Source: Candidatus Latescibacterota bacterium
Lineage (GTDB): Bacteria; Latescibacterota; UBA2968; UBA8231
Direction: 5' to 3'
Assembly (NCBI GenBank): GCA_965200315.1
Contig: OZ241362.1
Span: 3,904,001-3,968,000 of the forward strand
Length of the DNA stretch: 64,000 nucleotides
A program made the position numbers and the translations under genes. Below the pieces are notes generated by a model. It made no database searches, was not told the origin of the DNA, and was given only the letters and a program-made list of their open reading frames with translations. Shown piece after piece: positions 1,926 to 45,897 of the stretch (position 1 is the stretch's first letter; every line of letters starts with the position of its first letter).

Positions 1926-2003
1926 ATGAAAAAATGGCTACCACTTGCTATCCAGATAGCTATTGCCCTGCTAGACAATTGGCCGTCGAAGCGGCACTCG
2001 TAG
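1926..2003 (+). CDS. Small hydrophobic peptide, 25 aa (MKKWLPLAIQIAIALLDNWPSKRHS)
   Basis: Hand-translated. Very strong SD GAAAGGAGGTGA upstream of the ATG. Confidence 0.65.
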   Translation: MKKWLPLAIQIAIALLDNWPSKRHS

Positions 2004-2016
2004 CGTGGGCACTTAT

Positions 2017-2044
2017 CGGGGGCGGGGATTCATGCCCGCCCCCG
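2017..2044 (+). terminator. GC-rich hairpin closing the small-ORF cassette
   Basis: CGGGGGCGGG-gattcatg-CCCGCCCCCG perfect 10-bp stem, with only a weak, displaced U tract. Confidence 0.55.
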
Positions 2045-2055
2045 GGTACAGTTTC

Positions 2056-2084
2056 TTGACAAAGCGGCTAGTTGATTATAGACT
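2056..2084 (+). promoter_or_regulatory. Sigma70-type promoter for the ATPase operon
   Basis: TTGACA (2056-2061)-N17-TAGACT (2079-2084), overlapped by the inverted repeat GCTAGT...ACTAGC. Confidence 0.7.
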
Positions 2085-2116
2085 AGCATTCTTTCCCCTG
2101 AACTTGAGAGAACATC

Positions 2117-3640: not shown

Positions 3641-3642
3641 TA

Positions 3643-13032: not shown

Positions 13033-13072
13033 GAATTTTCCTCTTAAAGCACTTTGGGCTTCAGGCAACTGC

Positions 13073-16841: not shown

Positions 16842-16852
16842 GCGTTGCTTCC

Positions 16853-21663: not shown

Positions 21664-21806
21664 CCGATAACTCTGATACTTGCGCCAAGGATGGAGCGGA
21701 GGCGCAATCTACGCAAAAGATGAAAACCTCTTGTGCTCTCAGGCCATATATACTATAAAATCGTTTCCTGCTTTTGCCAGTAAGCCCATTGACGGAAGGA
21801 AGTGCA

Positions 21807-24099: not shown

Positions 24100-26004
24100 A
24101 TGCGATTCTTGAAAAGTATTATTGTCGGAGCGGCATCCCTGCTGCTTACGGCAGGAACGGCCAGTGCCCAGTTCGTCCATGCTGGTAACCCCGATGTCAC
24201 TAGCCTCGCCGATATGACCAGTGGCGGCAGTCCTACGGTTCTAGAGATCGAAGGCTTGTCGGATATATCCAGCTACGCTTTTGATGGTTCAGATCTAGAA
24301 ATCCCTTTTACCCTTTCAGGTAGCGGTGCCAAGGTCTGGCTGATCATCTACCATGCCGACGCGCATTCTCCTCTGACCATTACCGGCGAAGGGCCGGCAC
24401 CCTATAACGATCCCGAGCATCCCGATCCGGGCTGGCACGTGTACGAAGGGGTCAATCCCTTGGTGTTCAAGTCCAACGGCGAGCGCTTTGAAGAAGGCGA
24501 CAACGCCATCGTTTGGAACGGCCACGACAATGACGGCAATGTGGTGTCCGCAGGAAGCTACAAGCTATTCCTAGCCGCCTTTGACGACGAAGCCTCTCCT
24601 CATCTGGTGGCCGGTGCCGTCTTCCGCAAACTGGGGACTCCGGGTCGCTTCATCATCGACACGGCCAACAACCGCGTCTTCGACCATACTCGCAACAACA
24701 ATATGAACAACGACTGGATCGAGAACTTCGAGGGATTCGATATGATCGACCAAACCGCCATCATTGATGCGGGAGGTGGCGTACCACTATCCGGTGTGCC
24801 GCTCAACAGCGATATGACTGAGTTCATCGGTATCGGCCAGTCCAACCGCCTCATGCGCTGGACCGTGGACTGGGATTCCAATCGCCTAGCCCCGGAGGAG
24901 GACTGGGGCATTGACAACGGCGCCGAGGACGGCATCATCAACATTGAGGAACTGCCCGGCAGCCCAGGACAACGCACCCTCATCACCAATCCCGACAAGA
25001 CCGTCGCCTATGTCACCGCCGGCGTGACCGGCACGGTGGCTCAGATCGTCTCCTACGACGTCGAGACCGGTGCCAAGCTAGACACTTGGGACGTGACCGA
25101 CCTGTTTATCTACGATAATGCAGGCTCCGACCGCGTCGGTGGGCCGATGGAAACGGCCGCCTTTTACAATGGCGAGCCCCCTCCCGAAGGCATCACCACT
25201 ACCTCCCACCACACTTCGTGCATCGTGCGCCACAGCTACGCTGGCGATCTGATGTGGATGAACCGCAACGGCGACGGCTTTGGCGATACCCGCGCCTTCA
25301 ATTCGGAAGACGGCACGTTTGGCGACCTGCTCTACGGCCATACCGAAGCACCCAACTTCAAGTACTCGATTTTCGCCAATAAATGGGGCTGGGTCTCGGT
25401 TTGTGAAAACGGCTTAGACAACACCAGTTTTGGTGCCATGCTAGGTGAAGATGGTTCCGGCCTGTTTAAGTTCGAGCCCAAGCAGGCACCGCTGACTTGG
25501 TCGCAGCATGTGGCCGTGGTAGACGAGGGCGACGACTGGGACGGCGTGTACATGATTGTCGGCGGTTTCGGCGATGCCTTGGCTTCCAACGAATGGGTGC
25601 CCGAGGATGTCGGCGTAGTGCCGCCCACCCATCCGGTGGCCCAGTTCCCCTATGATCAGAAACAGGTTCTTTTGGGCTCGGCTAGCAGCACTGCGATCGA
25701 AGAGTTAGCCGGGGCCGCTACGCCCAACACGCCTGCTCTGGGCGATGCGTACCCCAATCCCTTCAATCCCGAGACCACGATTCGCTTCGACCTGCCCTGG
25801 CAAGCGCCGATCCAAATCAAGGTCTACAACCAGGCCGGCCAGTTGGTGCGCGTGTTGGCCGATCAGGCTATGGGGCCGGGTCAATTTTCTGTCACGTGGG
25901 ACGGCAGGGATGACAGTGGTGCAGAAGTATCCACTGGAGTGTACCTCTACCGGATTGAAGCACCCAATCTACAGTTGAGTAAAAAGGTCACATTCCTCAA
26001 ATAA
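24100..26004 (+). CDS. Secreted acidic protein with FlgD-Ig / T9SS type A-like C-terminal domain
   Basis: SD AAGGAG; signal peptide ending ASA-Q; C-terminal AYPNPFNPETTIRF...YNQAGQLVR...WDGRD...GVYLYR...KKVTFLK; second internal WNGHD...GSY module. Confidence 0.88.
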   Translation: MRFLKSIIVGAASLLLTAGTASAQFVHAGNPDVTSLADMTSGGSPTVLEIEGLSDISSYAFDGSDLEIPFTLSGSGAKVWLIIYHADAHSPLTITGEGPAPYNDPEHPDPGWHVYEGVNPLVFKSNGERFEEGDNAIVWNGHDNDGNVVSAGSYKLFLAAFDDEASPHLVAGAVFRKLGTPGRFIIDTANNRVFDHTRNNNMNNDWIENFEGFDMIDQTAIIDAGGGVPLSGVPLNSDMTEFIGIGQSNRLMRWTVDWDSNRLAPEEDWGIDNGAEDGIINIEELPGSPGQRTLITNPDKTVAYVTAGVTGTVAQIVSYDVETGAKLDTWDVTDLFIYDNAGSDRVGGPMETAAFYNGEPPPEGITTTSHHTSCIVRHSYAGDLMWMNRNGDGFGDTRAFNSEDGTFGDLLYGHTEAPNFKYSIFANKWGWVSVCENGLDNTSFGAMLGEDGSGLFKFEPKQAPLTWSQHVAVVDEGDDWDGVYMIVGGFGDALASNEWVPEDVGVVPPTHPVAQFPYDQKQVLLGSASSTAIEELAGAATPNTPALGDAYPNPFNPETTIRFDLPWQAPIQIKVYNQAGQLVRVLADQAMGPGQFSVTWDGRDDSGAEVSTGVYLYRIEAPNLQLSKKVTFLK

Positions 26005-26016
26005 AGTGCCTGACTT

Positions 26017-26058
26017 AGTAAGTGCTGCCGGCTGGTAGGCCGGTAGCACTTACTTTAT
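26017..26058 (+). terminator. Stem-loop (terminator or mRNA stabiliser) after the first gene of the envelope cluster
   Basis: AGTAAGTGCTGCCGGC-tggtag-GCCGGTAGCACTTACT, 16-bp stem with one G-U pair, then TTAT. Confidence 0.75.
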
Positions 26059-26072
26059 GCAGGTAAACAACG

Positions 26073-28211
26073 GTGCGAATCGACACATTCTTTCGCCTGC
26101 CAGCGATCCTGATGGTCTTGGCGCTGCTGTGCAGCAGTAGCCTTTCTGCCCAAGGCCTCTCGCGTGCCACTATTTCTAGTTGGCCTACGACTACGTACTA
26201 TCTCGGCTTTTTTGAATTCACAAGCAAAACGGACGGCCAGATCCAGATTGTCGCCGGGGGCCACTATACTCTCTATCTCAATGGCGATATAGTAGGTAGC
26301 GATCAGGGGCCTGACGCGGCACAATCCTACGAAGTTTCCTTTAAACGCCGGGTGAATCACGTAGCCGTAATCGTCCAACACGATGGTAGGCAGAGTCCGT
26401 ACGGACTGTTCTGTGTGCTAGATGGAGGGGAAGAGCATTTTGTCAGTTCGCCCACGGATCGAGCCAATTCCTGGTTCTGGACCGGCACCCCCCTTCCCAA
26501 CGAGGAAGATGCGGATTGGATGACCATCCGCCAGAGGGATTTAGGGGATTACGAAGAAAATGGCGAAGCCGTGCGCTGGCAGCCCGTTCAGGCCGGCAGC
26601 CTCGATCTAGGTATCTATGCCGAATTTGCGGATTTGAATCTGACCAGAAATTGGAGTATGGCAGGGTTTGCCGGTGGTCTAGCCGGCCATCAAGGAGGAT
26701 TGCAACTGCGCGACTTGGCCGGCCAGAATATGGCCTTCAATACGCTGTCGACCGAGCCCAATATGGTGGATGGCAACCTCAGCACTTCGGTAAATTTTCG
26801 CAAGGGAGCCGGTGCGCTTTTACAGAGTGTTGAAACCGATCTGGGCCGCCTCTTCTCCATTGAGCGGGTGCGAGTAATCACCCAGCCCCCTTCGAGTAGA
26901 ACCAGTTACGAAGATCTGTCACTGCGCGGGTATAGCATTCTAGTGAGCAAGGACGGAGTCGGATTTCTAGAAGTCGGATCGCAGAATCAGATTACTACGT
27001 TCCAAGAGAGCGAAGTGGTCTTTCCGCCTATGCCCGCCCGGCACGTGCGCCTGACTATCACCGAGTTTTCCAATCGCAATGCTGCGCCGCGGATGGGCGA
27101 GTTGGAAGTCTACGTTCAAGGGCTGGACCAGCAGGGCACATACCGGTCTCCCCCACTGAATCTGGGCACCAATGACCTGAAGAATTTTGAACGGGTCCAA
27201 TGGTTCGGCCAAGTGCCGTCCAACGCGGAAATGAGTCTGCGCTTTCGCAGCGGCGACGATGGCCAAGTCTGGAGCACCTGGTCGGACTGGTCGCCGCACC
27301 TCGACAGACTGCTGGATGTTCCCGAGCCGCGCCATTTCCTGCAATTTGAATCCCGCCTTGCGACCCAAGCATTGATGGAGGGGCCAGTGCTAGACAGCTT
27401 AGTTGTCTTCTACGATAGCGGTCCCAGCCCAGCCACTCGGGCAGCGGCCTCAATTCTACCGCTGCACACTTCGATTGGTGTGGATACGCTTTTTACCTAT
27501 ACGCTTGAGTTGGACATCGGGGTGGATGATACCGGGATTGGACGTTTGGCGATTGTAACCCCGTGGCCAGCCAGTTTGGACAGAGCCGCTGTCCAAGGCC
27601 TAGGTAGTGCTGGCATTGCCGATGTGGTGGCCAGTAATGATTCCCTATTGTTGGTTTTCGACCCGCCTATTACCTCTGAAACTGGTACTACGGAACTGGT
27701 TGTACCCTTTACTACCCGGCTGCTAGCGGCTAGCCACGCCTTCCAAGGATTGCTCTTTCCGCCGGATGCGACTTCCTCGCTACGGGTCCAAGAGCGCGAG
27801 GGCACTGATCCAAATACTGGCTTGGCGTATTCTATCACCGCCTCGACAATCGATTTCGATATCGCTATCCTCGACGATGTGCAGGCCCATCCTGCAGCCT
27901 TCACGCCTAATGGCGACACCATCAACGACGAAGCCATTTTGGGCTTTGTTTTGGGGCGAGTGAACGATGCCCAGGTCCATTTTGAAATCTACGATCTGGG
28001 GGGCCGCTTGGTCCGCACTCTCCCCGCACGTGAACTCAATGCCGGTAACTATGTGCCTAGAGACGGGCTCGACGCGAATCTGCCCGGTCGCTGGGACGGA
28101 CGCGGAGATGACGGCGAAGTACTGCCGCCCGGCTTGTACGTGTTTCGTGTTGTCGTAGACCTGAAACCCGACAAAAAAGTGGGAACGGGCGTTATCGGAC
28201 TGGCTTACTGA
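26073..28211 (+). CDS. Secreted discoidin-domain protein with C-terminal FlgD-Ig/CTD
   Basis: Signal peptide; VDGNLSTS...DLGR...YSILVSKDG...ARHVRL (F5/8C-like); FTPNGDTIND...YDLGGRLVR...WDGR...LPPGLY. Confidence 0.82.
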   Translation: MRIDTFFRLPAILMVLALLCSSSLSAQGLSRATISSWPTTTYYLGFFEFTSKTDGQIQIVAGGHYTLYLNGDIVGSDQGPDAAQSYEVSFKRRVNHVAVIVQHDGRQSPYGLFCVLDGGEEHFVSSPTDRANSWFWTGTPLPNEEDADWMTIRQRDLGDYEENGEAVRWQPVQAGSLDLGIYAEFADLNLTRNWSMAGFAGGLAGHQGGLQLRDLAGQNMAFNTLSTEPNMVDGNLSTSVNFRKGAGALLQSVETDLGRLFSIERVRVITQPPSSRTSYEDLSLRGYSILVSKDGVGFLEVGSQNQITTFQESEVVFPPMPARHVRLTITEFSNRNAAPRMGELEVYVQGLDQQGTYRSPPLNLGTNDLKNFERVQWFGQVPSNAEMSLRFRSGDDGQVWSTWSDWSPHLDRLLDVPEPRHFLQFESRLATQALMEGPVLDSLVVFYDSGPSPATRAAASILPLHTSIGVDTLFTYTLELDIGVDDTGIGRLAIVTPWPASLDRAAVQGLGSAGIADVVASNDSLLLVFDPPITSETGTTELVVPFTTRLLAASHAFQGLLFPPDATSSLRVQEREGTDPNTGLAYSITASTIDFDIAILDDVQAHPAAFTPNGDTINDEAILGFVLGRVNDAQVHFEIYDLGGRLVRTLPARELNAGNYVPRDGLDANLPGRWDGRGDDGEVLPPGLYVFRVVVDLKPDKKVGTGVIGLAY

Positions 28212-28330
28212 AGCACGTAAGGTCAACGTGTTTGCGGTCGTTTGCTGTTCACCCGAAATATCTCGGGTAATTATTTTTCCGCCTCGTGTCCCGCATAAGA
28301 CTCGAGCCTTGGGCTATTGTAATTCACGTT

Positions 28331-31024
28331 ATGAAACGTGTACTTATGCACCATACTCTCAGCTATGCCCCTATCATTCTTTGCCTGCTGCTAGCGGTTG
28401 GCGTTGATCTAGTCGAGGCCCAATTTCTATCGCGGGACTACCGACGCTTGTGGACCAACGAATTATTTGAAAACTACGGTGCATCGGGCTATCGCGACTA
28501 TGACCTAGAAGATGAGAATCGCCGCTTCGACCTGTTTGGTGACCTGCTGATTGATGGCGTCGATGTGGTTGAGTACAGCGAAATTCGCCGCGACTCGCCC
28601 GGTATTAGGGGCAGTTTTGAATCCCGCAATGCGCGCTACGATCGCTTCTTCCAGAAGCTGATCATCGCCAACGAGGGCTTCGGGTCTTGGTCCACTCGCC
28701 TGATAATTGGAGACCACATCCGCACCTTCTTCACCCCGATGACTTTGAATCTGCCTAGCTATAGCGGCATTCGCTGGGACGGTTCTTCTCGCAAAAGCCG
28801 TTTTAGCATTATTGGCACGCATCTTACCGATCCGGTACTCGCGTCGGGTTTAGGATCCCTCGAACAAAACGCAACCCAACGCCGGATATTTGGTACGAGC
28901 CTGTTCGGTGGACACTGGGAGAGCCAGATTGGCGATATCCTTACGATAGGCTCCACTTATGTCAACGTGCATCGCTTTGACGCCGAAGCCAATGCCAAAA
29001 CCAACAGCTTGAGAGGCACCGTGCCTCAGGTGATGCAGGACGGCTTGCGCAAGGTATTCGTTTTTATTAGCGACGATGCACCGTACAGAGGTTCTGGTGC
29101 CGAAGTGCATCAACTGGATATGTTCGTAAACGACATCCCTATACTGCCTATGCGGGTGGGCCGGATCAACAATCTGCTCAAACACATCCCTGTGACTACA
29201 GATCTGAGTAGCACGATCTTGTTGCAGCCACACGAAATCGGCTATTTACGCCGCAACCGCGACTGGCTGCACTCAGTGGTTGATGCCAGTAATACACCTT
29301 TTTTTCGCTCTTTGTTGGCCGGTATTACCCAAGACATAGCCCCTGCAACTCAAGCTGCTCCTCTTAGCACCCACGACACGGACGTTATCTATTATGAATA
29401 TGTCGTGCCTGATACGGTGAGCCGGATCGATTTCAGTGCCGTCGTGGCCAATGACTACAGCGTAGATGTGGTCGGAGCTGTACAGGTGCCGCTATTGGCA
29501 CCAGGCGCTGACGATTTTTACTACGATTGGCACAATGCGGCACGCGCCACCGGCCAAGCCGACCAGCGCAGCAATTTGCGCCAAATCCGATTCAACTACG
29601 GTTTTCCCACTGGCCTCTCGCTACTAGGTCTTAATTTTGCAGCCACCTTTATGGGCTTTCAACTACAGGGGGAACTCGCCCGTAGCACGACCTTTTTCAA
29701 GGTGCCCGAAGCCAAGGGCAAGCGCTACAAGCGCGAAAGTTCCATGTATTACTTCAATATGCTACGTCCTGTATACGACCGAGCAGAGGTAGGCTTTGAG
29801 TTGTTCGACGTGCCGCACGACTACACTACAGATTTCTCTTTGTTTTTTGCTTCAAAGGTAGGACCCACCGTCGGCGGCCGACTCTACGATTCGTTCTCAT
29901 TAGTCGAGGATAACGACGACCTAGACGACTGGCCCGACCGAGTAGAACGCAACGATCCATTGGCACCGTATTTGAGTGCCAGCGGCCAAGGTCACGGCGT
30001 GTATCCAGGCTTCGATCCCAATGGCGACGGCGTCCTCGATTTCAACCTAGACTTGGATCGCGGATCCGATGCTACGCAGCCCTTTATAAGCTACTACTCT
30101 GAACTGCCCAGCTTGGTTTTCGGCGATGATTTCGACAACAACGGCATCGTCGATTTTCGCGAAAACGACAATCTACCCGATTACCTATATCCAGTGGACC
30201 ACCGCGGCTTTCACGGCTTTGTCTCGCTGCAACCTACTGACCGCACCCAGTTGCGGCTGGGCCTGTACCGGGTGCGGCAACCAGCCCTAGGTACGCGCAA
30301 TTACTCCCGTTATCTAGAAACCCAGTACCAACGCGACTGGCAAGATTGGGGCTATGCGCGCCTTGGTTACCGCATTAAGCGGGCGCAAGACAACATCCAG
30401 AATACGACCTTTTTCCCTACCTCCGATACCACTCTAAACCCAGATCGGCTGGAAAACAGAAACAGCCTCAACAATCAGATCTTTTTTGAGTGGGGCCTAA
30501 CGACCCTGCCGGCGTTGAACATGCGCAATATCATCTCTTTTACTCACATCGATCTGGAGGGACAGATCCTAGCTGATCCCGTAGCAGCCAAACCAGGCAC
30601 GATGACCCGTTTTGCCATGGTGAACAAGGCCGACTATACCATAAACCGGGGACGTTTCAGCATTCTTCCCCAGTTCAAGCATATCTACCAACGGCACAAG
30701 TCCCCCGAACTCCAGATCCCGGATACCCAGAGCCGCTGGCTCATGCCCATTCTGCGCGTGGACTATCGGTTGACGGTCAAGACCGTGCTCAAAACAGGAA
30801 TCCAAGGCTTGCCCTTCTGGCGTGAGCGCTTTCTCGATGCGGCCCGTCCAGAGAGCGAGTTTACGCGTCTGACCTACACGGCTTTTTTGCAGAACAAAAG
30901 CAATTACCGCGGCTACGACCTGACCATACTGTTGGGTACCTATCATACGACGAAGAAATTCACCGGCTCGACCCGGCCTAAAGACGGTTTTCTGGAATAT
31001 TTCTTTAGGGTCTACATTGGCTAA
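28331..31024 (+). CDS. Large exported protein, putative outer-membrane beta-barrel with Asp-rich Ca-binding loops (paralog 1)
   Basis: Signal peptide; VEDNDDLDDWPD, DPNGDG, DFDNNG; amphipathic C-terminal strands ending YFFRVYIG; start uncertain. Confidence 0.7.
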   Translation: MKRVLMHHTLSYAPIILCLLLAVGVDLVEAQFLSRDYRRLWTNELFENYGASGYRDYDLEDENRRFDLFGDLLIDGVDVVEYSEIRRDSPGIRGSFESRNARYDRFFQKLIIANEGFGSWSTRLIIGDHIRTFFTPMTLNLPSYSGIRWDGSSRKSRFSIIGTHLTDPVLASGLGSLEQNATQRRIFGTSLFGGHWESQIGDILTIGSTYVNVHRFDAEANAKTNSLRGTVPQVMQDGLRKVFVFISDDAPYRGSGAEVHQLDMFVNDIPILPMRVGRINNLLKHIPVTTDLSSTILLQPHEIGYLRRNRDWLHSVVDASNTPFFRSLLAGITQDIAPATQAAPLSTHDTDVIYYEYVVPDTVSRIDFSAVVANDYSVDVVGAVQVPLLAPGADDFYYDWHNAARATGQADQRSNLRQIRFNYGFPTGLSLLGLNFAATFMGFQLQGELARSTTFFKVPEAKGKRYKRESSMYYFNMLRPVYDRAEVGFELFDVPHDYTTDFSLFFASKVGPTVGGRLYDSFSLVEDNDDLDDWPDRVERNDPLAPYLSASGQGHGVYPGFDPNGDGVLDFNLDLDRGSDATQPFISYYSELPSLVFGDDFDNNGIVDFRENDNLPDYLYPVDHRGFHGFVSLQPTDRTQLRLGLYRVRQPALGTRNYSRYLETQYQRDWQDWGYARLGYRIKRAQDNIQNTTFFPTSDTTLNPDRLENRNSLNNQIFFEWGLTTLPALNMRNIISFTHIDLEGQILADPVAAKPGTMTRFAMVNKADYTINRGRFSILPQFKHIYQRHKSPELQIPDTQSRWLMPILRVDYRLTVKTVLKTGIQGLPFWRERFLDAARPESEFTRLTYTAFLQNKSNYRGYDLTILLGTYHTTKKFTGSTRPKDGFLEYFFRVYIG

Positions 31025-31039
31025 TATGGGCGGAATTAT

Positions 31040-33829: not shown

Positions 33830-33830
33830 G

Positions 33831-36800: not shown

Positions 36801-36953
36801 AATTCTCAATACTTCGGTTACATCATTTCTACTAACGCGGGCATCGGTCGCCGTGTCAAGAAATTCGACGACCCAACTCGAGGCGAGATAAAAGACGAAG
36901 ATTTCACCTCCGCTTTTATTAATGTAATCCTAGGATTCGTAGATGAAACCTGA
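33831..36953 (+). CDS. Large exported protein, putative beta-barrel (paralog 3)
   Basis: Signal peptide TFA-Q; VEDNDDNDRYPD, DEDRDG, DLNHND; ends AFINVILGF; start uncertain. Confidence 0.7.
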   Translation: MFKMVFRVLRNISNATKILRLGACGLALLLFLCTGTFAQELEDSPEHPRLGPPRLLLDQPYIGQFGQEYYQNYGFEDYSRQPPTTSNLRNFYNSLGDPLLYGTESIRWVERHGLGVRRGFSSQSEGFSHGQAPGSSYGSLFNYVIVGTDGTDAWQARAIYANELRSKFTPLTFKMANVDGLRIDVGTEQDKFSAIASNLVPNNTFIVNTMMLGTHYERKLGFLNFGTTFLNAHQFEPRMESGHRTLKGVVGAVQRSTALVAIRISDGSPQDGRGGPVLHGVKVFVNGVHRPEAKPFVIRLRRRGAERQSYMAGLLRSGDRRPLPELDNDYQAINRGAVWNTYDPYINYASFDTDVFYRGYEFPFWIDHLFYRDFKLYGADHVLNADEEISVNSEFAHELSEFDPTTNPEGQFFGLHSLADLPQTFDGEEYGILYVDLEPFQEQITSVNIELELANDYHVEVSEIDLSGEAGDTPNPNYRDRYNYATFFRTVATTPGNPQDGRVRTVRVKVGAPTGLSIYSTNVYGVLKGFEINGEFSRSNSFYQYASGMPAPRVPSEALSVNALNREQFPGTRSTIADNAYYLTIKRDFDRLGLGAELFSMGALYNTELRTYIGRSENNFGSLVAYNNVYLHRLVEDNDDNDRYPDSWYTNRPTIFQGQSDIDGIFPGLDEDRDGIPDTNRNFNGTPDYLEPFLMYDSDPQIYDYGLDLNHNDFIDVRENDIQPDLPYDPGLRGRHLYGTFEPIHRARITLGVMDAEQIAANDPSDFYYGNLGYERQIPALGQFFGVLSVERVEDGVADPLSIYSDEVLTPAQQLEREFAGLQRNIQLSPFLEEPRDDPLLFKNSTYTRMFVDARWKAVPNLKIHNKVKYEINSQHEGELYDGTFQEGNRLSRLTMVHKADYLWQIRSRLSLFSGLKFRYLKEWQKTNDLAMAQERHIIPLLKLQYELTLRTRFQLGIQGLGMALPYSVTNEIQPINNFEQYDVMLMITNNSQYFGYIISTNAGIGRRVKKFDDPTRGEIKDEDFTSAFINVILGFVDET

Positions 36954-36978
36954 TCGGCAATTTGGGAGATAACGCGCT

Positions 36979-39900: not shown

Positions 39901-40221
39901 GAACTCAGGGAGGCAATCGCGTATGAACGCTACGAACAGGGCATCGCCCTGATGGACTCGGCCGAAGTGACCAAGGAGACTCAGTACTATCAGCAGGCCG
40001 TGGAGATTTTCCAAGATGTGATCGACAACTATCCCAGCACCGAGAGCGAGGTCGGCGCGCTGAGCAATATGGGCGTATGCTTGGAAGGGTTGGGGAAATG
40101 GCAGCAGGCCGTAGAAGTGTACGACCGCGTAATTCAATTATTCGAGGATAAACGCGCCACTAGGGATGCCTTTCTATTTGCCCAATCCCACCGGGATTGG
40201 ATCATCTCCACCCGGCTCTGA
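36979..40221 (+). CDS. Large tetratricopeptide-repeat protein with N-terminal hydrophobic anchor
   Basis: Repeated TPR consensus (AYYNTGWAYY, SLFQIGECH, AYFILGDAL, LFGLAESLY, YP.S) throughout 1080 aa. Confidence 0.9.
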   Translation: MNLTLIVGLLTIAGAYFAARTPSEEELVASFQEAQRFYAEGAYDQAIAEYTAVTRVQSKVLAVQNIEVIVGEERFSLRDAAFYQIGNAHSKLYQDYTRFAEESPNVEKRAEYQVLSDSTFARAVAEFRHVIETATSQVLRIRAHSRLIDLFFTAKAYPKVIATSQEMIANYPNSSQIVNAYYNTGWAYYETKNYDRAVQSFEALLLRFSTGYQSDRSLFQIGECHRERGDCLQAIDYYRRLVERQRIEALTEDELLQMKREKMAGLVDETALELAAKAMIRVGTCYAQLGSFEEGLQAYHRVIDLFSTERSLVEEAYLRMADLYREQGNLDAALQTYREAIDQSQDRTLKARIQYALAERLFSQGLYEQAIQEYRIYLQGYGDIAQVVGFSQDRVRYRIGSSHQQLGQQYLEAGNRPAATGQLGYAIAQYDTLYDAASSYVLDSQFNRALAHQALATTSSVAHARTAYETIIQEDEEARYTQRALVQLAELLFEQGQYAAAAERAEQLLRTYVNSEFTNEALMRLALSRQAEGDLDRAGVAFLRVASESPYFVQARIGGGHVFLTQGKYSEAIAALEPAFDQVEDEKQLGSYHYLLGQAYSGQEEDRRAITHFTEALGLSLDSKLVEALHLSRSNTAFALEDYQQGEQDLNWIIENVEDEEKVRFARNALAFSYIKQNRGGDAVQVLDEMVAQADGPKEKADLLNRMMDLHYDQDNYPQTVRTARQLLALDFADESASGPNGIKEKAYFILGDALLRLGQNAEAIDVFNQALNAYPNSRFAQDMQLALGTHYFSQGELDRAVEIFTQLKGIEQTSEKALLVSFYLANAHYSLREFAQAQVLFQQLLADYPNVRELPDILFGLAESLYQQGQYAEAIVYYQRLLGNFPDEPSADDAQYNMAWCLIELKREDQAMQAFRTLLARYPQSEFSASVQFTFGDYAYNRGDYQEAMRLYLLVQERFPTAEVASQVPRLVAELREAIAYERYEQGIALMDSAEVTKETQYYQQAVEIFQDVIDNYPSTESEVGALSNMGVCLEGLGKWQQAVEVYDRVIQLFEDKRATRDAFLFAQSHRDWIISTRL

Positions 40222-40240
40222 GTAGGAAGGTCGCATAACA

Positions 40241-40807
40241 ATGGAAATGCGTTTCAAACAGCGCTGGCACTTGGTTATTCTAAGTAGCGTCTTGATGCTG
40301 GCCTCCAGCCAGCGTCTCCATGCCCAAGTAGGGACGGATAACCAGCCCAAGGCGGCCTCAAGCGATATATCCCATCCTCGGGTCGTCGCTCTTTCGGTCG
40401 CCTTTCCAGGTTTGGGACAACTGGCTGCAGGGCATCGAGTCAAGGGTACGGCCCTAGTGGCAACCGGTATCGCAACCATAGTGGGGTGGCTCACCTCGCA
40501 CGCCGATTACAATACGCAGGCCAATCAGTTCGCCTTAGAAAAAGAACGCTATCTTTCGCTGCAAAACGGGGGCTCCTTTGACGCGGCGGAAAAAAGCTGG
40601 CGACGACTCGATAATTTAAAATCCGATCTGGACGGTTCCCATATCCAGCGCCGCTTATTCGGCGTCCTAGCCGTGGGTATTTACGGCTACAATTTGCTCG
40701 ATGTCCTACTGTTAGATGGAGCGTCTCCTGCTGCGAAGCGGCGAATGCGCGTCGCGCCGTTGCCACAGACCGGAACATCAGGCGTCTTACTGGTTGCCCA
40801 GTTTTAG
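40241..40807 (+). CDS. DUF5683-like exported/membrane protein
   Basis: SVAFPGLGQL...KG motif and IYGYNLLD; ends in F. Confidence 0.6.
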   Translation: MEMRFKQRWHLVILSSVLMLASSQRLHAQVGTDNQPKAASSDISHPRVVALSVAFPGLGQLAAGHRVKGTALVATGIATIVGWLTSHADYNTQANQFALEKERYLSLQNGGSFDAAEKSWRRLDNLKSDLDGSHIQRRLFGVLAVGIYGYNLLDVLLLDGASPAAKRRMRVAPLPQTGTSGVLLVAQF

Positions 40808-40832
40808 CATCTGGCCTAGGGAGAAACTGGAT

Positions 40833-41204
40833 ATGGAAACCCGATTTTATCTTTTACTCGGTCTGCTGATCTGGGGATGTAGCAACGATACTGAGCTACC
40901 TATACAGTACCACCGAGGACATCTTGCTCAGCCTACCATTGTGGAAGCGGTAGCCGAAGAAGGCAAGATCGTAGTTTCATGGGATTTGGATTCAGCAGCT
41001 AATGTGTCCGGTTTTGTTATTAGCTTCACCGATTCGATTGGAGTCGTGCAAACGCGCTCGTTGGAAGATGCAGAGGCAAGGTCCTATGAGGAGACAGACC
41101 TAGATCTGAGCCCAAGAGTCTGGTATCTGATCCAAGTGTGGGCGGTAGATTCCCGCCTGTTTTTCGGACCGCGTTCGGCAGTAGATACGTTGGCGGTTTT
41201 TTAG
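40833..41204 (+). CDS. Lipoprotein with fibronectin type III-like domain
   Basis: Lipobox IWG-C; VSWD...GFVI...Y.E.DL...YLIQVWAVD. Confidence 0.7.
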   Translation: METRFYLLLGLLIWGCSNDTELPIQYHRGHLAQPTIVEAVAEEGKIVVSWDLDSAANVSGFVISFTDSIGVVQTRSLEDAEARSYEETDLDLSPRVWYLIQVWAVDSRLFFGPRSAVDTLAVF

Positions 41205-41245
41205 GCAGCTTCTTCCGAGCATGAACTTAGCAGGAGTGGCGTAGT

Positions 41246-42481
41246 ATGGTCTCAGCTCTAGGCCGTTTTCAAGCGCCAAGTGATCAGTTAAACTTTAACC
41301 GCTTCCTGCGGGAAACCTTCAAATACACCGTCTGGGGGTTACTCATCGGTGCGGGACTGATCGCCGGGGCCTTCGTCTATTGGGTATTGAGTGTCGAGGA
41401 ACGCGACGCACCGGAACCGGCGTTGACCCGACTCATCATTCGCAAACCTAGGGCGACCAAGACTTTTGCGCTCAAACGTCAACGGCTCAGGCCACGGGCA
41501 CTCACCAAGCAGGTCACGGCACTCAAGCCACGGCTGTCCGCGGCGGCGGCTCCACGCCTCAAAGGCTCCAGTGTTTTCGGCAATGTACAGACGTTTGAAT
41601 ACGCCCTGCAGACAGACGTGCCAATCAACCTGAAGACCAGCTCTATCGAATTGTCCGCCGCCAAAATCACCGGCACCAAAGATCCGGAAAAGCGCATTGC
41701 CATGCGCGAGGAATTGATCGATCTGAACGCGCTGGATACAGGCAAATACAAGGGGCTTATCATCCAAGATCCGACTGACCGCCGCAAAGTCAAGGGGTTC
41801 GTCTATTTGGGTACGGCTTGGGCCAACGACCTGAAGCCAACTTTTGACAGCGCTGCCAAGGCGATCCCCAATCTAGTCGACGCCCTCAACGAACAGACGG
41901 GCATCTCGGCCAGAGTAGACGCGCATTTATTTCTCGATTCCCAAGAACTGTTTCGCACGCCTTTTGTGTACATCACCACCACTGAGGCTTTTGAGCTGAC
42001 GGAACGCGAACTAGAGAATCTGGGAGAATATTTGCGGCGGGGCGGGTTCATCTTCGTCGACAATGCCAACCCCACCACAGAATTCAGTCAGGGGGAGGCG
42101 TCTTTGCGACGCATCTTTCGCGGGGCTTTAGGGGCACAAGGCCAACTGCGGCCCATTTCCAATAACCATCCGATCTACCATACCTTTTACGATTTTGACG
42201 GCCCGCCGGTCGGCTCTGAACTAGAGATTCCCAGCTTCTCCGAACAGCGTAGCCTTGATCACTTAGTCATCGCCGAGCAATCGTATTACCTAGAGGGTGT
42301 CTTCCTAGAAGATCGCCTAGTAGCCATGTACTCCGACAAGGGATACGTCCACACTTGGGCGCGCAATTACGGTAATGAACCACAGCTTCGATTTGGCATC
42401 AACGCCGTTATTTTTGCCCTGACGCAGGAAGGCTCCATCGCCCAGCAGCAGATTGATTTCTTCAGTCAGCGGGGCCAATAA
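41246..42481 (+). CDS. Membrane-anchored DUF4159-domain protein
   Basis: N-terminal TM helix, basic linker, then PFVYIT, ENLGEYLRRGGFIFVD, HPIYHTFYDF, RFGINAVIFALTQ. Confidence 0.8.
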   Translation: MVSALGRFQAPSDQLNFNRFLRETFKYTVWGLLIGAGLIAGAFVYWVLSVEERDAPEPALTRLIIRKPRATKTFALKRQRLRPRALTKQVTALKPRLSAAAAPRLKGSSVFGNVQTFEYALQTDVPINLKTSSIELSAAKITGTKDPEKRIAMREELIDLNALDTGKYKGLIIQDPTDRRKVKGFVYLGTAWANDLKPTFDSAAKAIPNLVDALNEQTGISARVDAHLFLDSQELFRTPFVYITTTEAFELTERELENLGEYLRRGGFIFVDNANPTTEFSQGEASLRRIFRGALGAQGQLRPISNNHPIYHTFYDFDGPPVGSELEIPSFSEQRSLDHLVIAEQSYYLEGVFLEDRLVAMYSDKGYVHTWARNYGNEPQLRFGINAVIFALTQEGSIAQQQIDFFSQRGQ

Positions 42482-42489
42482 GAGAGGTA

Positions 42490-43248
42490 ATGGCCATGCC
42501 TTTGAGAATTATTCTAATGTTATTCGCGTCCGGCTGTAGCTTTTTTATTCCGCCGACCATTCTGTACAAAAACGAGTTGACACCCCGTTCTTCCCAAGGC
42601 GCGGAGAAGCAGTATATCGTGGGTGAAGACGGATCGGTCGCGTATGCCATAGAGGGGCTGCGCGTCAAGGTGGAATCGATGACGGACGACCAATTGAATG
42701 CACTGTTGCCCGAGGATTCAAGCAAAGGGAAATTCTCGACAAATCCCTACACCTACGGCAATTGGATTGCTCCACTATTGGGTTACCGGCCCAAACGTTT
42801 TACGGTTTTTCGCGTTACGGTTATCAACGATATCTATGCCAAAGTTCTGCTCGATCCGATCAAAGCGTTGCTCTATACCGATCAGGGCGAAGTTCTGCAC
42901 TCCTATGGTCTGCCGTCTTTTTCGCCGCACAAAAGTTTTGAGCGCTACTACCGGGCCATTCGCGGTCAGAGCGGTAACGAATTCTATCGCTTTGACTTGC
43001 GCATGGGCAATGCGCGTAGCACGGCCTATATAGAAAACCAAAAGGTGTTCAAAGGAGAAAAATATTCGGGACTCATCGCCTTCGATCCACTGAACGAGGA
43101 AGTCCGCCAGGTGCGCCTAGTGCTCAAAAATTTTGTCCTGAAATTCGACGCCTCTGGACAGCCGCTGGAAACCGTGGATATCGCCCTCGAGTTCGATCAA
43201 AAAATTGCAACCGAGAAAGTCCGGCAAGCTGAGACAACAGGCAGGTAG
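42490..43248 (+). CDS. Putative lipoprotein
   Basis: Lipobox ASG-C; in operon, SD GAGAGG. Confidence 0.7.
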   Translation: MAMPLRIILMLFASGCSFFIPPTILYKNELTPRSSQGAEKQYIVGEDGSVAYAIEGLRVKVESMTDDQLNALLPEDSSKGKFSTNPYTYGNWIAPLLGYRPKRFTVFRVTVINDIYAKVLLDPIKALLYTDQGEVLHSYGLPSFSPHKSFERYYRAIRGQSGNEFYRFDLRMGNARSTAYIENQKVFKGEKYSGLIAFDPLNEEVRQVRLVLKNFVLKFDASGQPLETVDIALEFDQKIATEKVRQAETTGR

Positions 43249-43253
43249 TTCCA

Positions 43254-44177
43254 TTGCGTTCGCTAATCATTTTATTCTTTTGCACTTGGGTAGGTGCGCT
43301 CGATACGGCAGTCGCTGCCGAGAGGCCGCTTTCGGCTCTGCGCCTTGCCCTGCTCGATTTTGAGGACCGAGCCGGTTTTCAGGCGGAATGGCATTTATCT
43401 AAGGATGTGCCCGATTTGCTAGGTCGCTATCTGGATGCAGACGATGCGGTCTTTGTCATTCCACCAAAAGAAGTCGAGGCCGTGCAACAGAACAAACAGT
43501 TTAAAAAATACTACGGCATTGACCGAGCCGTGCGGCTAGGGCAATTCTTAGACGCCGACGTGGTCATTACCGGCGTCGTGGAGAAAATGGGCATGCGCCG
43601 CGTTTCCGTAGGAAACCCCAATCTGGCTGGCTACAAATCCTACAATTCAGTGATCCACCTCAGCCAAATGCAGCTAATCAGAGTAGCGACCGGAGAAATT
43701 GTCGAGACCTTTAAAACACTCAGGGACTCCACGGAAAAATCGTACGGCCTAGATCTGTTCGGCCGACCGCGCAAACAGGATCGGGCATTCCGCGAACTCT
43801 TCACGGTTGACTTCGGTTCCGAGCGTTTTTTTGAATTGGCCTTTGGCAAGCTCGTCGATGTCGCCTTCAGAGACCTCAGCAGCCAGATGATTACGAGTCT
43901 GACGGAGCGCCCCCCCATCGACCTTTCCGGCGCACAGGCCCAAGTCCTAGCGGTTGAGGCCGACGAGGTGTATCTAGGCATCGGCATCTTGGATCGCGTC
44001 GAGTACGGCGATGTCCTACCGCTGTACGACAAAGAGGTCCGAATCGCTCTAGTCAGGGTGCATCAGCTTATCGGGCCGCACTTGTGCAAGGCCGAGGTCT
44101 TGGAGAAATTTGGCGTCATAGATGCCGGTTTGCGCATAGGACAGCGCTTATCTAGAAACGCCAAAGAAGACAACTAG
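43254..44177 (+). CDS. Exported CsgG/FlgT-like protein
   Basis: Signal peptide; LALLDFED, AVRLGQFLDADVVITG, LIRVATGEI; C-terminal VLAVE...VYLGIG...GD beta domain. Confidence 0.6.
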   Translation: MRSLIILFFCTWVGALDTAVAAERPLSALRLALLDFEDRAGFQAEWHLSKDVPDLLGRYLDADDAVFVIPPKEVEAVQQNKQFKKYYGIDRAVRLGQFLDADVVITGVVEKMGMRRVSVGNPNLAGYKSYNSVIHLSQMQLIRVATGEIVETFKTLRDSTEKSYGLDLFGRPRKQDRAFRELFTVDFGSERFFELAFGKLVDVAFRDLSSQMITSLTERPPIDLSGAQAQVLAVEADEVYLGIGILDRVEYGDVLPLYDKEVRIALVRVHQLIGPHLCKAEVLEKFGVIDAGLRIGQRLSRNAKEDN

Positions 44178-44209
44178 AACTCTTCTCTTGCCAACAAGGA
44201 GCAGTAGCA

Positions 44210-44956
44210 ATGTGGGAAATAATTCAAAGTGGCGGTCCGATGATGGTTCCCCTCATCGCCTGTGCTATTCTGGCCATTGCCTATTCGATTGAACGCCTGT
44301 GGATTTTCAGTCAATTGCCCACGCCGGAAGAAGCCCAAAGTGAGCTCGACCGGCTCGAGACCGCGCTGCGCAACGGCGGGGAACAGGCCGTCGTGGAAGA
44401 GTGCAACCAAGGCAAAGGGCTGCTCAATTACGTCTTTGCTTCTCTGCTGAAACGATACGATACGCTGGTGATCGAACAGCGGGAATTCAAAGAGACCAAC
44501 GAGGAGATCATCCGTCTGGCCGACGCCGGCGGCGGTGGGCAGGTGAGCCGGTTTATGGTGATGCAGCGGGAACTGGCCGATCTCAAAGACGAGTTGGTCA
44601 TTCAGACCGAGGCCGCCGCCCGGGCCTATTTGGGTAAAAATCTGGCGATCCTGAATACCATCGGCAATATAAGCCCTTTGCTGGGCTTGCTCGGCACCAT
44701 TATGGGGATGATCATCGCCTTTGAGTCTATCGCCACCGCCGGTGCCGGCGACCCGAAAGTCGTGGCCGGCGGTATTTCCCAAGCCTTGGTCACGACCGCA
44801 TCGGGGCTGATCGTCGCCATCCCAACGATTGTATTGTACCGCTATCTGGCGCGCAAAGCAGACAATTTACTTGAAGATGCCGAGATGTATGGGCATGCCT
44901 TTGCCAATGCTCTGATTACTGCAGGCCAGCGCCAACAATACGAAACGACAGATTAG
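44210..44956 (+). CDS. exbB: MotA/TolQ/ExbB proton channel family protein
   Basis: GGPMMVPL, SPLLGLLGTIMGMI, GGISQALVTTASGLIVAIP. Confidence 0.92.
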   Translation: MWEIIQSGGPMMVPLIACAILAIAYSIERLWIFSQLPTPEEAQSELDRLETALRNGGEQAVVEECNQGKGLLNYVFASLLKRYDTLVIEQREFKETNEEIIRLADAGGGGQVSRFMVMQRELADLKDELVIQTEAAARAYLGKNLAILNTIGNISPLLGLLGTIMGMIIAFESIATAGAGDPKVVAGGISQALVTTASGLIVAIPTIVLYRYLARKADNLLEDAEMYGHAFANALITAGQRQQYETTD

Positions 44957-44979
44957 CTCCTGCGGGAGGAGTGCATCCC

Positions 44980-45396
44980 ATGGCCAGACACCGCAAAGAT
45001 CGGCCCGAGAGCTTTCTGGCCGAAGGCGGGCCGGATATGACGCCGCTGATCGACTGCGTCTTTTTGCTGCTGATCTTCTTTATGGTAACCACAGTGTTTC
45101 TCCACACCAAAGGGTTGGAAGTGGACATGCCGGCCCAAAGCGAGGCCACAGAAGAAAAGAAGAAAGATATCAACGTCTTGCTAGACCGCGACGGCAAAAT
45201 TCAAATCAAGGGCGAGGACGTGCTGCCAGCGACCTTGGCGGCTCGGCTGGTCACGGCCATGGAAGAGGCCAATAACGAGAATATCATCATTCAGGCCGAC
45301 GGCGAGTGCGCTCAGAAACACGTAGTGTTTGTGGTGGATAAAGCCAAAGAGGTCGGGGTTGAGGGCATCGCTTTTGTGCGGGAACGGGAGGAATGA
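44980..45396 (+). CDS. exbD: ExbD/TolR family protein
   Basis: MTPLIDCVFLLLIFFMVT, IIQAD. Confidence 0.92.
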   Translation: MARHRKDRPESFLAEGGPDMTPLIDCVFLLLIFFMVTTVFLHTKGLEVDMPAQSEATEEKKKDINVLLDRDGKIQIKGEDVLPATLAARLVTAMEEANNENIIIQADGECAQKHVVFVVDKAKEVGVEGIAFVREREE

Positions 45397-45506
45397 GTCC
45401 GATGCCTAGGCGCAAAGCCCTATACGAAGAGCAAGAACTTAATATGACGCCGCTGATCGACTGCGTCTTTTTGCTGCTGATCTTCTTTATGGTAACCACA
45501 GTGTTT
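45035..45506 (+). repeat. 65-bp exact direct repeat shared by the two exbD genes (45035-45099 and 45442-45506)
   Basis: ATATGACGCCGCTGATCGACTGCGTCTTTTTGCTGCTGATCTTCTTTATGGTAACCACAGTGTTT is identical in both. Confidence 0.9.
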
Positions 45507-45809
45507 AAGCAACCCTATAGCCTTCAAGTCGTATTGCCCGAAGCGCAACAGGCTCAGATTGTCGAAGAGAAGAAACTAGTGGCGACGATCACCCAAGACG
45601 GCCGCATGGAGATCAACCGCCATCTGGTGACCTTGGACAATTTGGAGCAGATCCTTTTGCGGGAAAAAGAAGGCACCCGGAGTTTGACGCTAGTAGTGAG
45701 GACCGATCAGGAAACCCCACATAAGTACCTATTGGATCTCTTTGAGGTGGCCAAGCGCGTAGGCATTGAAAAAATACCGCTGGCGACAGAAGACTTGCAA
45801 AAAAAATAG
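45393..45809 (+). CDS. exbD: ExbD/TolR family protein (second copy)
   Basis: NMTPLIDCVFLLLIFFMVT, VVRTD; ATGA overlap with the upstream gene. Confidence 0.92.
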   Translation: MSPMPRRKALYEEQELNMTPLIDCVFLLLIFFMVTTVFKQPYSLQVVLPEAQQAQIVEEKKLVATITQDGRMEINRHLVTLDNLEQILLREKEGTRSLTLVVRTDQETPHKYLLDLFEVAKRVGIEKIPLATEDLQKK

Positions 45810-45897
45810 TTTGGCAGCGAACCGCCACGGCGAATAGATCCCCGGCAAACGCCCACAGCAGCCATCCCACCCCATCTGAATAAGTGTAGCCTTTGCC

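Follow-up and report, generated by a model that had tools for sequence, protein, structure and literature searches.

How can a bacterium do work at its outer membrane, where there is no energy source, from a locus that carries a proton-driven motor and neither a canonical TonB nor a TonB-dependent receptor? The question is raised by a cluster at positions 24100-45809 of a 64,000-nucleotide stretch of Candidatus Latescibacterota DNA (GenBank assembly GCA_965200315.1, contig OZ241362.1, positions 3,904,001 to 3,968,000 of the forward strand), the whole of which we call the window. Latescibacterota is a widespread phylum of which, to our knowledge, there are no cultured members. We propose that the cluster encodes an envelope-spanning apparatus of the Ton/Tol/Agl-Glt kind, driven by the proton motive force and made of mostly new parts. 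More specifically, we tentatively favour, short of calling it probable, an Agl-Glt/Nfs-like force transducer acting on a surface platform of barrels and lectins. We assign it to this kind because its motor appears intact, a tetratricopeptide repeat (TPR) protein stands beside the motor, a TonB-shaped protein is present, the barrels form a fixed trio, lipoproteins and surface proteins accompany them, and a Glt-type domain occurs in the system.

If the parts work together, they would be the Latescibacterota's own answer to performing work at a membrane without an energy source, and the Agl-Glt/Nfs machinery would gain a simpler relative that evolved independently. A link between an ExbBD-type motor and surface proteins delivered by a type IX secretion system (T9SS) would be new. 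The barrel family at the centre of the locus has 41 copies in one 5.4-Mb genome, and it is unnamed, lacks a Pfam model, and has no relative of solved structure. No published description of the system was found in the literature on Latescibacterota envelopes and on DUF4159, supplementary files excepted. A 2015 Latescibacteria genome paper reportedly mentions, in the part available, only ordinary porins and TonB-dependent import.

Gene content and proposed architecture

A preliminary description of this DNA, made from the sequence, had reported a co-oriented, tightly spaced run of 14 genes, and all 14 are found on the + strand where it had placed them:

24100-26004, +: g1, 634-aa secreted surface protein with a T9SS C-terminal sorting domain (FlgD_ig, CHU_C, TIGR04183)
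26073-28211, +: g2, 712-aa surface protein with a discoidin domain (F5/8 type C, CBM32-like) and a FlgD-Ig/CHU_C-like tail
28286-31024, +: B1, predicted giant outer-membrane barrel, paralogue 1, open reading frame (ORF) of 912 aa
31040-33829, +: B2, predicted giant outer-membrane barrel, paralogue 2, 929 aa (AlphaFold2 model)
33804-36953, +: B3, predicted giant outer-membrane barrel, paralogue 3, ORF of 1049 aa
36979-40221, +: TPR protein, 1080 aa, whose N-terminus has a hydrophobic segment (a signal peptide or an anchor)
40241-40807, +: weakly DUF5683-like protein, 188 aa; it has a signal peptide and another hydrophobic segment
40830-41204, +: small lipoprotein of about 124 aa, possibly Fn3-like (lipobox in the translation)
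41246-42481, +: DUF4159 protein, TonB-shaped, predicted in the inner membrane (DUF4159 E 2e-30, one transmembrane segment)
42490-43248, +: p252, lipoprotein with a predicted Ig-like beta-sandwich, short form without a TonB-like C-terminal domain
43254-44177, +: p307, secreted 307-aa protein, possibly CsgG/LpoB/FlgT_C-like
44210-44956, +: ExbB/TolQ-type proton channel subunit (MotA_ExbB E 2.6e-29)
44971-45396, +: ExbD/TolR-type subunit 1 (ExbD E 6.2e-28)
45393-45809, +: ExbD/TolR-type subunit 2 (ExbD E 1.4e-29; 4-bp overlap with subunit 1)

Neighbouring genes from g1 to the second ExbD are separated by -26 to 74 bp, 220 bp lie ahead of g1, and this packing of 14 genes is operon-like. Promoter-like sites (16 versus 13.8 in shuffled sequences) and terminator-like sites (14 versus 19.9) are no more numerous than in shuffles and so give no evidence on operon limits. 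A transglutaminase-like gene just upstream (21774-23879) was not counted as a member of the system because it is found in 0 of 50 related loci.

In the arrangement that we envisage, an inner-membrane ExbB-ExbD-ExbD stator with the one-plus-two composition of AglRQS would turn proton flow into movement. The single-pass DUF4159 protein, shaped like TonB, TolA, or GltG, would take up this movement, and the 1080-aa TPR protein, comparable to GltD in size and build, would carry it across the periplasm. The outer-membrane platform would consist of three paralogous barrels of about 24 strands, with the p252 lipoprotein and the CsgG/LpoB-like p307 as helpers, and the barrels, which bear large extracellular caps with acidic loops, would hold T9SS-delivered g1 and the discoidin lectin g2. 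Such a machine could pull or move surface-bound ligands, perhaps glycans or the matrix of a sponge habitat, for adhesion or gliding, or to hand polymers to the cell. Gene content, conservation, the barrel fold, domain links, and presence in RNA-library contigs are the observations on which this scheme is built.

Conservation of the locus

Is the cluster a lasting unit? Fifty related loci were found with B3 as the query, and all window proteins were mapped onto them; the relatives that carry the locus are Candidatus Latescibacterota metagenome-assembled genomes. Gene order, whose conservation had been set beforehand as a test, is kept: B1-B2-B3-TPR occurs in 27 of the 50 loci, and the tail DUF4159-p252-p307-ExbB-ExbD-ExbD is complete in 16, while 4 further loci end at contig edges and agree with the window up to that point. 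Five divergent loci (L038-L042, 25-50% identity) keep g1-g2-B1-B2-B3, followed by TPR-DUF4159-p252 in L038, L041, and L042, where no ExbBD was detected, and by p252 alone in L039 and L040. One further locus, L051, retains the linkage barrel-TPR-ExbB-ExbD-ExbD-p252 at 25-35% identity, and the remaining related loci hold lone barrels or other arrangements. Because the order recurs down to 25-35% protein identity, it is not a matter of chance. In one relative (L019, 21766-23114, - strand) an ExbB-ExbD-ExbD set 93-98% identical to that of the window stands tail to tail with a window-like locus of about 57% identity, and two loci of the system would appear to lie side by side in that genome.

Of 151 genomes sampled from the phylum, 94 have the barrel family and 92 the p252 family. 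Both occur in 63/63 genomes of the organism's own family, and both are missing from the same four families (0/30, 0/19, 0/5, and 0/2); one family has barrels in 13/13 genomes versus p252 in 11/13. This shared profile shows co-inheritance; it is not a statistical test, and related genomes are not independent.

The motor, the TPR protein, and a candidate transducer

The motor is recognizable at the family level. ExbB reaches 80 bits on the TolQ model (cut-off 221) and 72.5 bits on the ExbB model, below both equivalog cut-offs, and the TolR model gives 64.5 bits against a cut-off of 127. The transmembrane aspartate is kept in both ExbD proteins, and to judge from the sequence, the one-plus-two motor of one ExbB and two ExbD is intact.

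The TPR protein matches TPR_6 (E 1.4e-59) and, in 8 stretches, the YbgF-like family TIGR02795 (E 2e-67); no Glt model is among the 21 NCBIfam matches obtained. Its hydrophobic segment spans residues 1-19, and its N-terminus is conserved in homologues, where the alignment shows no histidine or other polar hallmark in this segment. The genome has four ExbB/TolQ-type loci, and in three of them the TPR protein adjoins ExbB. The DUF4159 protein has its one transmembrane segment at residues 27-51, after a short cytoplasmic N-terminus, and in an 18-sequence alignment this N-terminus is conserved and a Pro/basic linker before the head strongly so. Its build appears to be that of TonB, TolA, and GltG, although the head differs from theirs; according to PMC4702930, Pfam assigns DUF4159, for structural reasons, to the class-I glutamine-amidotransferase-like clan.

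The preliminary description had stressed the lack of a canonical TonB. This is true of the window, which has 0 matches to TonB_C and 0 to Plug (4 and 15, respectively, in the genome), and it does not carry over to the system, in which we find the TonB-shaped DUF4159 protein and, in sister loci, a lipoprotein with a TonB C-terminal domain. The combination of DUF4159 and TPR proteins also occurs in Bat operons, and these two are all that such operons have in common with the locus: among 15 locus proteins there is no MoxR ATPase, no DUF58, and no vWA protein of the BatA/BatB kind, and BatC reaches 51 bits against 175. A Bat operon was therefore rejected.

Tol-Pal was rejected as well, with TolQ and TolR under their cut-offs and no TolB match at the family cut-off in the genome (best 117.9 bits versus 343). 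The missing TolB could instead suggest a replacement for Tol-Pal, in which the TPR protein, ExbB/ExbD, DUF4159 protein, and lipoproteins would serve envelope integrity and division and the barrels would be outer-membrane anchor points. The eight YbgF-like stretches of the TPR protein would fit this idea, as would an ExbB that scores higher on TolQ than on ExbB and a genome with only four ExbB/TolQ-type genes, one of them with a canonical TonB. We nevertheless consider it very unlikely. Three paralogous energiser-type loci in one genome are unlike an essential housekeeping system, two families of the phylum lack both barrel and p252 (0/30 and 0/19 genomes sampled), Tol-Pal has nothing to match the close association with T9SS cargo lectins, and every Tol equivalog score falls far below its cut-off.

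Three giant barrels

The three largest products other than the TPR protein are strangers to the databases. B1, B2, and B3 match no Pfam family at E <= 0.01 (B2 none at E <= 1) and no NCBIfam family, and a profile of the barrels finds nothing below E 0.1 among PDB sequences. In a collection of 5.8 billion proteins we found 57 barrel relatives, every one unnamed or "hypothetical", and in a library of 1.84 billion proteins the family comprises 1143 clusters at 50% identity with E <= 0.001, 380 of them at E <= 1e-30. B1 and B2 share 27% identity (E 5e-81), B2 and B3 32% over the C-terminal 600 residues (E 1e-78), and the three are true paralogues. B1 probably starts later than its ORF, ahead of a signal peptide.

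An AlphaFold2 model of B2, computed from a 79-sequence alignment, is a large beta-barrel (pLDDT, a predicted local distance difference test score, 77.7; predicted template modelling score, pTM, 0.78) with about 24 strands as counted from the DSSP string of the model, beginning at about residue 60. The topology was read from printed secondary structure rather than coordinates, from the C-terminus back, with tight turns taken as periplasmic. On this reading, about 35 N-terminal residues of B2 would extend into the periplasm, the barrel would lack a plug at its N-terminus, and two large inserts would lie on the extracellular side: a beta-sandwich (about 210-390) and the acidic loops (about 482-627). 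The 79-sequence alignment shows the N-terminal extension to be conserved and the invariant residues to concentrate in an acidic stretch rich in Asp and Asn (B2 529-617). The acidic loops of the extracellular caps probably bind calcium.

Fold searches with the predicted structure return generic large barrels only. The top Foldseek match is SlpA (8ae1_A, E 5.6e-9, TM-score 0.27), followed by MtrB (6r2q_B), LptD, and TonB-dependent transporters; TM-scores for B2 span only 0.14-0.27, and those of TonB-dependent transporter structures 0.18-0.22. VIA-align ties porins and ushers at Z 12-13 (FimD 12.5-12.8). The best structural matches of B2 are thus the large barrels of the SlpA/OmpM, MtrB, LptD, and chaperone-usher kinds. 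An SlpA/OmpM identity was rejected. SlpA_C has a sub-threshold match in one barrel homologue (E 2.4e-4, 20.1 bits versus a cut-off of 35) and none in the window barrels, no SLH domain was found and there is no coiled-coil stalk, and the Z scores of the structural matches are tied with those of ordinary porins. The proposal that the large proteins might be ordinary TonB-dependent receptors was likewise set aside, as the preliminary description had anticipated: they lack Plug (PF07715) and TonB_dep_Rec (PF00593), the B2 model begins with barrel strands, and these number about 24 rather than 22.

Surface proteins and type IX secretion

What would the barrels hold? The two genes ahead of them encode surface proteins with the marks of T9SS cargo. 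g1 matches FlgD_ig (E 9.3e-18) and CHU_C (E 4.7e-7) in Pfam, and its TIGR04183 score of 32.9 bits against a cut-off of 23 identifies a C-terminal sorting domain of T9SS cargo; FlgD_ig and CHU_C recur in 16/16 aligned homologues, and the family has only 2 copies in the genome. g2 carries F5_F8_type_C (E 1.8e-8) and a FlgD_ig match of 25.9 bits, just below the cut-off of 27, and its family profile finds neuropilin, galactose oxidase, and CBM32 discoidin domains (E 1.5e-10), and also FlgD, in the PDB. By a tblastn census the genome has 87 g2-like genes. Many of these paralogues bear a CHU_C tail at 27.3-35.7 bits, above the 27-bit cut-off, and others pass FlgD_ig; the CHU_C tail is presumably a type-B T9SS signal. 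Elsewhere in the genome lie SprA (496.6 bits, 3732263-3737719) and PorU (615.1 bits), and a T9SS is thus present that could deliver g1 and g2, which we count in favour of the proposed transducer.

These observations also bear on a static explanation, in which the barrels would be counterparts of PorP/SprF that display T9SS cargo, and the motor, TPR, and DUF4159 genes a separate Tol/Ton-like housekeeping unit. A CHU_C-tailed cargo gene directly upstream of a barrel gene mirrors the sprB/sprF-type arrangement of type-B cargo, as outlined in part of PMC9143113, and the CHU_C scores of the g2 paralogues are in keeping with it. The strongly conserved extracellular acidic loops would be a candidate docking site, and a SurA-like peptidyl-prolyl isomerase beside 12 of 27 own-genome loci fits the biogenesis of barrels and cargo. 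Yet at about 900-1050 aa and about 24 strands the barrels match neither PorP/SprF nor any other Pfam family, the motor-TPR-p252-barrel linkage is kept at 25-35% identity (L051) and in three loci of the genome, and barrels and p252 co-occur family by family. We therefore judge static display unlikely.

The locus shares with the T9SS a proton-driven motor, which in that system is thought to move outer-membrane proteins along a periplasmic track (PMC12635249, in the section drawn on here). Unlike in the T9SS, the motor is ExbBD rather than GldLM, and the GldK/N track genes lie outside the locus. The T9SS structural parts SprA/Sov, PorV, PorP/SprF, and PorW/SprE were considered and rejected: the barrels match none of the models, and the TPR protein reaches 116 bits on PorW/SprE against a cut-off of 250. 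In line with the preliminary description, the cluster is no piece of a known T9SS, Bat, or Glt locus.

A second pair of surface-protein genes lies upstream on the - strand with no barrel beside it: 16853-18847, with a FlgD_ig tail, and 14505-16973, with a discoidin domain and a CHU_C tail. Downstream of this pair, also on the - strand, follow a sulfatase (13073-14485) and an S15 X-Pro dipeptidyl peptidase (11212-13068).

Lipoproteins and small periplasmic proteins

The p252 family provides a specific tie to Glt proteins, although not through its window member. The lipobox cysteine is invariant in 33/33 aligned sequences. The AlphaFold2 model of p252 is an Ig-like sandwich with a helical insert (pLDDT 87.6), whose nearest folds are the Bacillus subtilis lipoproteins YcdA (Z 8.3) and YjhA (Z 7.4); this is a common sandwich, so no function follows from the matches. 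The p252 profile finds TonB C-terminal domains in the PDB (E 7.6e-4), and the signal comes from a C-terminal extension of long homologues. In 4/4 long forms scanned, this C-terminus matches NF033768 (AgmX/PglI, that is, the C-terminal domain of GltJ/GltG; 51-61 bits versus a cut-off of 40), and the same four match NF033760 (GltG) at E 5.7e-8 to 4.5e-6. Among the best 120 of 248 homologues, 94 have 368-444 aa, which suggests that the long form is the common one and that the window carries a short form. Public names in the family include "TonB family protein", "AgmX/PglI C-terminal domain-containing protein", and "energy transducer TonB". In the genome an NF033768-type domain occurs once, on a lipoprotein of a sister locus (4850546-4850779, 63 bits).

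A predicted complex of the long p252 TonB-like domain with the N-terminal extensions of the three sister-locus barrels scored 0.00, a value that speaks neither for nor against such contacts. In a 2025 structural model, the TonB-like domains of GltG and GltJ are modelled docking on the GltD pillar (PMC11761067, in the part cited), and by this analogy we think that the TPR protein may be a better partner than the barrel extensions.

The other small proteins are less well defined. p307 has look-alikes by language model in CsgG/LpoB/FlgT_C clusters (0.95-0.93), no Pfam match better than E 0.047, no NCBIfam match, and nothing in a profile search of the PDB. It is found in 17 loci, each with a short p252, and in 0/5 long-form loci (L038-L042); from this distribution, p307 may take the place of the TonB-like domain, and the TonB-like domain that of p307. 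The 188-aa protein, present in 20 related loci, reaches DUF5683 at E 1.5e-5 and 25.5 bits, below the cut-off of 26.7. The small lipoprotein (about 124 aa) gets no better than E 0.027 against fn3; it has homologues of 119-197 aa in 20 loci, and its start is placed near 40830 because homologues have 123-136 aa. Of the gene labels in the preliminary description most domain assignments held up, while "DUF5683" and "Fn3" are sub-threshold and "CsgG/FlgT-like" denotes language-model look-alikes only.

Sister loci and genome-wide expansion

The genome, a closed single contig of 5.36 Mb, was searched by tblastn for further members of each family. The census gave 41 barrel, 87 g2-like, 15 p252-like, and 8 DUF4159 genes, 4 large TPR relatives, and 4 ExbB and 7 ExbD genes. 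The locus is thus no one-off, as the copy numbers of its barrel, lectin, and lipoprotein families show. A g2-like gene lies within 8 kb of 38 of 39 well-covered barrels (directly upstream in 20), 68 of the 87 g2-like genes have a barrel no more than 10 kb away, and 13 of 14 p252 genes lie within 12 kb of one. Small loci typically have the order (CBM9-like)-p252-g2 (one to four copies)-barrel. Energiser parts are found at four loci of the genome, namely the cluster in the window and the following three:

genome 4833794-4856186: sister locus, TPR-DUF4159-long p252-g2-B-B-g2-B...g1, without ExbBD
genome 1357264-1364497: barrel-TPR-ExbB-ExbD-ExbD-p252
genome 1497472-1505013: p252-TPR-ExbB-ExbD-DUF4159

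The fourth ExbB belongs to a canonical ExbB-ExbD-ExbD-TonB cluster. This cluster (L065, genome 1699000-1705000) reads TPR-ExbB-ExbD-ExbD-TonB, with two ExbD genes and an upstream TPR gene of 384 aa.

A quick maximum-likelihood tree of 39 barrels, for which the careful search is unfinished, separates 8 energiser-locus barrels from 31 small-locus barrels (support 100). Within it, every one of the window's B1, B2, and B3 has as its sister a counterpart from the sister locus (support 99). Because each window barrel pairs with such a counterpart, the trio appears to be ancient and fixed, and the expansion a separate branch; the clade of 8 with its paired trio would fit a fixed hetero-trio such as GltA/B/H. 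Tandem pairs of small-locus barrels consistently have one member in each of two sister subclades, which suggests fixed two-barrel units. Examples of such pairs lie at genome positions 3314487-3319821, 5050969-5056244, 2612257-2617016, 1279082-1284510, and 4790511-4797660.

The same numbers form the basis of the strongest rival to a force transducer, energised uptake by an analogue of SusCD. Here the barrels would be channels, g2 lectins would capture glycans or glycoproteins, ExbBD, DUF4159, TPR, and p252 would open the channels, and the 31 small-locus barrels would depend on three energiser loci, much as numerous receptors share a few TonB systems. The likeness to TonB-ExbB-ExbD/SusCD loci of Bacteroidota lies in an ExbB/ExbD motor, in many barrels beside genes for surface glycan-binding proteins, in few energisers for many barrels, and in a TonB-C-type domain, carried here by long p252. 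The 41 barrels exceed the 15 Plug-domain matches of the genome, lectin and p252 genes keep close to barrels, and the N-terminal periplasmic extension of the barrels is conserved. Neighbouring genes resemble those of nutrient loci: a Pfam scan of 181 ORFs (75 + 106) around 27 own-genome loci found FG-GAP/ASPIC and DUF6785/DUF6784 proteins, ATP-binding cassette (ABC) transporter parts, PhyH, an amidohydrolase, a sulfatase-maturing enzyme, and peptidases, and the part of the window upstream of the cluster encodes a sulfatase, an S15 peptidase, GH4, and a 3-keto-disaccharide hydrolase.

Several features nonetheless set the locus apart from TonB/SusCD transport, and we regard uptake as possible but doubtful. 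The barrels have neither a plug nor TonB_dep_Rec, about 24 rather than 22 strands, and no recognizable TonB box, for which no motif test was made. The binding proteins are T9SS cargo rather than SusD lipoproteins, and among the 181 neighbour ORFs there is no glycoside hydrolase family and no regulator of the polysaccharide utilization locus type. The most conserved region of the barrels is formed by the extracellular acidic loops and not by a periplasmic or lumenal element, the window trio falls in a different clade from the expanded barrels, and the TonB-like domain is carried by a lipoprotein.

A broader view would draw on both ideas. The loci could represent a further class of ExbBD/TolQR/AglRQS-type machine, found in Latescibacterota and some neighbours, in which few energiser loci power dozens of barrel-lectin modules per genome and polymer harvesting has been built independently of SusCD/TonB transport. 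A DUF4159-headed transducer, a TPR pillar, and a lipoprotein with a GltG/J-type domain would then drive calcium-capped barrels that hold T9SS-delivered lectins. We offer this as a conceivable, rather speculative extension.

Habitat and expression

The public sequencing runs in which the stretch occurs are catalogued as sponge metagenomes. In two metatranscriptome libraries, both from one study, which is also that of the likely source sample, contigs cover 30 of 30 bins of 26000-45900, and among them are pieces, 5.9 and 8.3 kb long, that each extend over several genes. The depth of these contigs is 82-89 over g2 and 13-21 from B2 to ExbD. Of two other RNA runs, one holds only short pieces at 95-99% identity and the other none, and no conclusion was drawn from them.

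Comparison with Agl-Glt and Nfs

How far does the likeness to Agl-Glt carry? In Myxococcus xanthus, the CglB adhesin is moved by Agl-Glt and the glycan of the spore coat by Agl-Nfs. The locus resembles these machines in its one TolQ/ExbB-like and two TolR/ExbD-like subunits, a likeness at the family level and not one of AglRQS orthology, in a large TPR protein beside the motor, in an outer-membrane platform of several barrels with lipoproteins and a surface protein, and in a GltJ/GltG-type C-terminal domain (NF033768) that occurs, within this genome, only in the sister locus of the system. The preliminary description had drawn the same comparison from the one-plus-two motor; this part stands, and long p252 of the sister locus adds to it, but no window protein matches a Glt model.

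The 2025 model, in the part that treats the motor, likens AglR5QS-GltG to TolQ5R2-TolA (PMC11761067). According to the text consulted from a 2011 paper, the Glt "core complex" consists of gltD, E, G, and C with aglRQS and forms a single cluster in several proteobacteria and one member of the Fibrobacteres, where that text assigns it no function (PMC3169522). Its role outside the myxobacteria has, to go by this source, been open since then (PMC3169522).

Other differences are a matter of design: the membrane-anchored candidate transducer has a DUF4159 head here, and the surface proteins are T9SS-delivered rather than lipoproteins.

A further set of points weighs against an Agl-Glt-like transducer. 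No window protein matches a Glt family model at E <= 0.01, and window p252, p307, and the DUF4159 protein have 0 NCBIfam families each, hence no GltG/GltJ-type domain. The TPR protein resembles GltD (1191 aa with a signal peptide, in the passages cited from PMC3169522 and PMC11761067) by size, signal-like N-terminus, and TPR content alone. The barrels are 3-4 times larger than GltA/B/H and unrelated to them in sequence; counterparts of GltC, GltE, GltF, and GltI were not found in our comparison, and there is one TPR gene only. The TonB-like domain sits on a beta-sandwich lipoprotein and not on an FHA/transmembrane protein beside ExbB. The 31 further barrels and 87 lectins often lie near catabolic genes and a polytopic membrane protein, and in this the expansion is closer to what one would expect of a nutrient-uptake repertoire than of a machine for motility. 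The RNA-library contigs cannot show one transcript and may include DNA carry-over. Finally, it is by inference that we join the products into one complex, order the steps by which force would pass between them, and choose a function among the secretion or display, uptake, and motility that the preliminary description had put forward.

Flanking genes

Two genes that flank the cluster in the window also have relatives beside other barrel loci:

window 45898-48891, -: FG-GAP/ASPIC-UnbV and TPR protein, convergent to the cluster
window 19702-21663, -: DUF6785/DUF6784 polytopic membrane protein with at least 10 hydrophobic segments

In the neighbour scan, FG-GAP/ASPIC-UnbV proteins stand beside 6 of the 27 loci, plus the window, and the DUF6785/DUF6784 protein beside 4, plus the window; the latter could be an inner-membrane transporter linked to barrel-lectin loci. 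Proteins that combine PMT_2 and TPR occur beside 5 of the 27 loci, and CBM9-like proteins next to p252 in 3. Farther downstream, the window holds a SelB selenocysteine elongation factor (51478-53379, -) and, near it, a SelA-like gene (57822-59009, +), and the organism probably makes selenoproteins. At the other end of the window, the GC content drops to 0.44 at 2001-4000, versus 0.51-0.65 over the rest.

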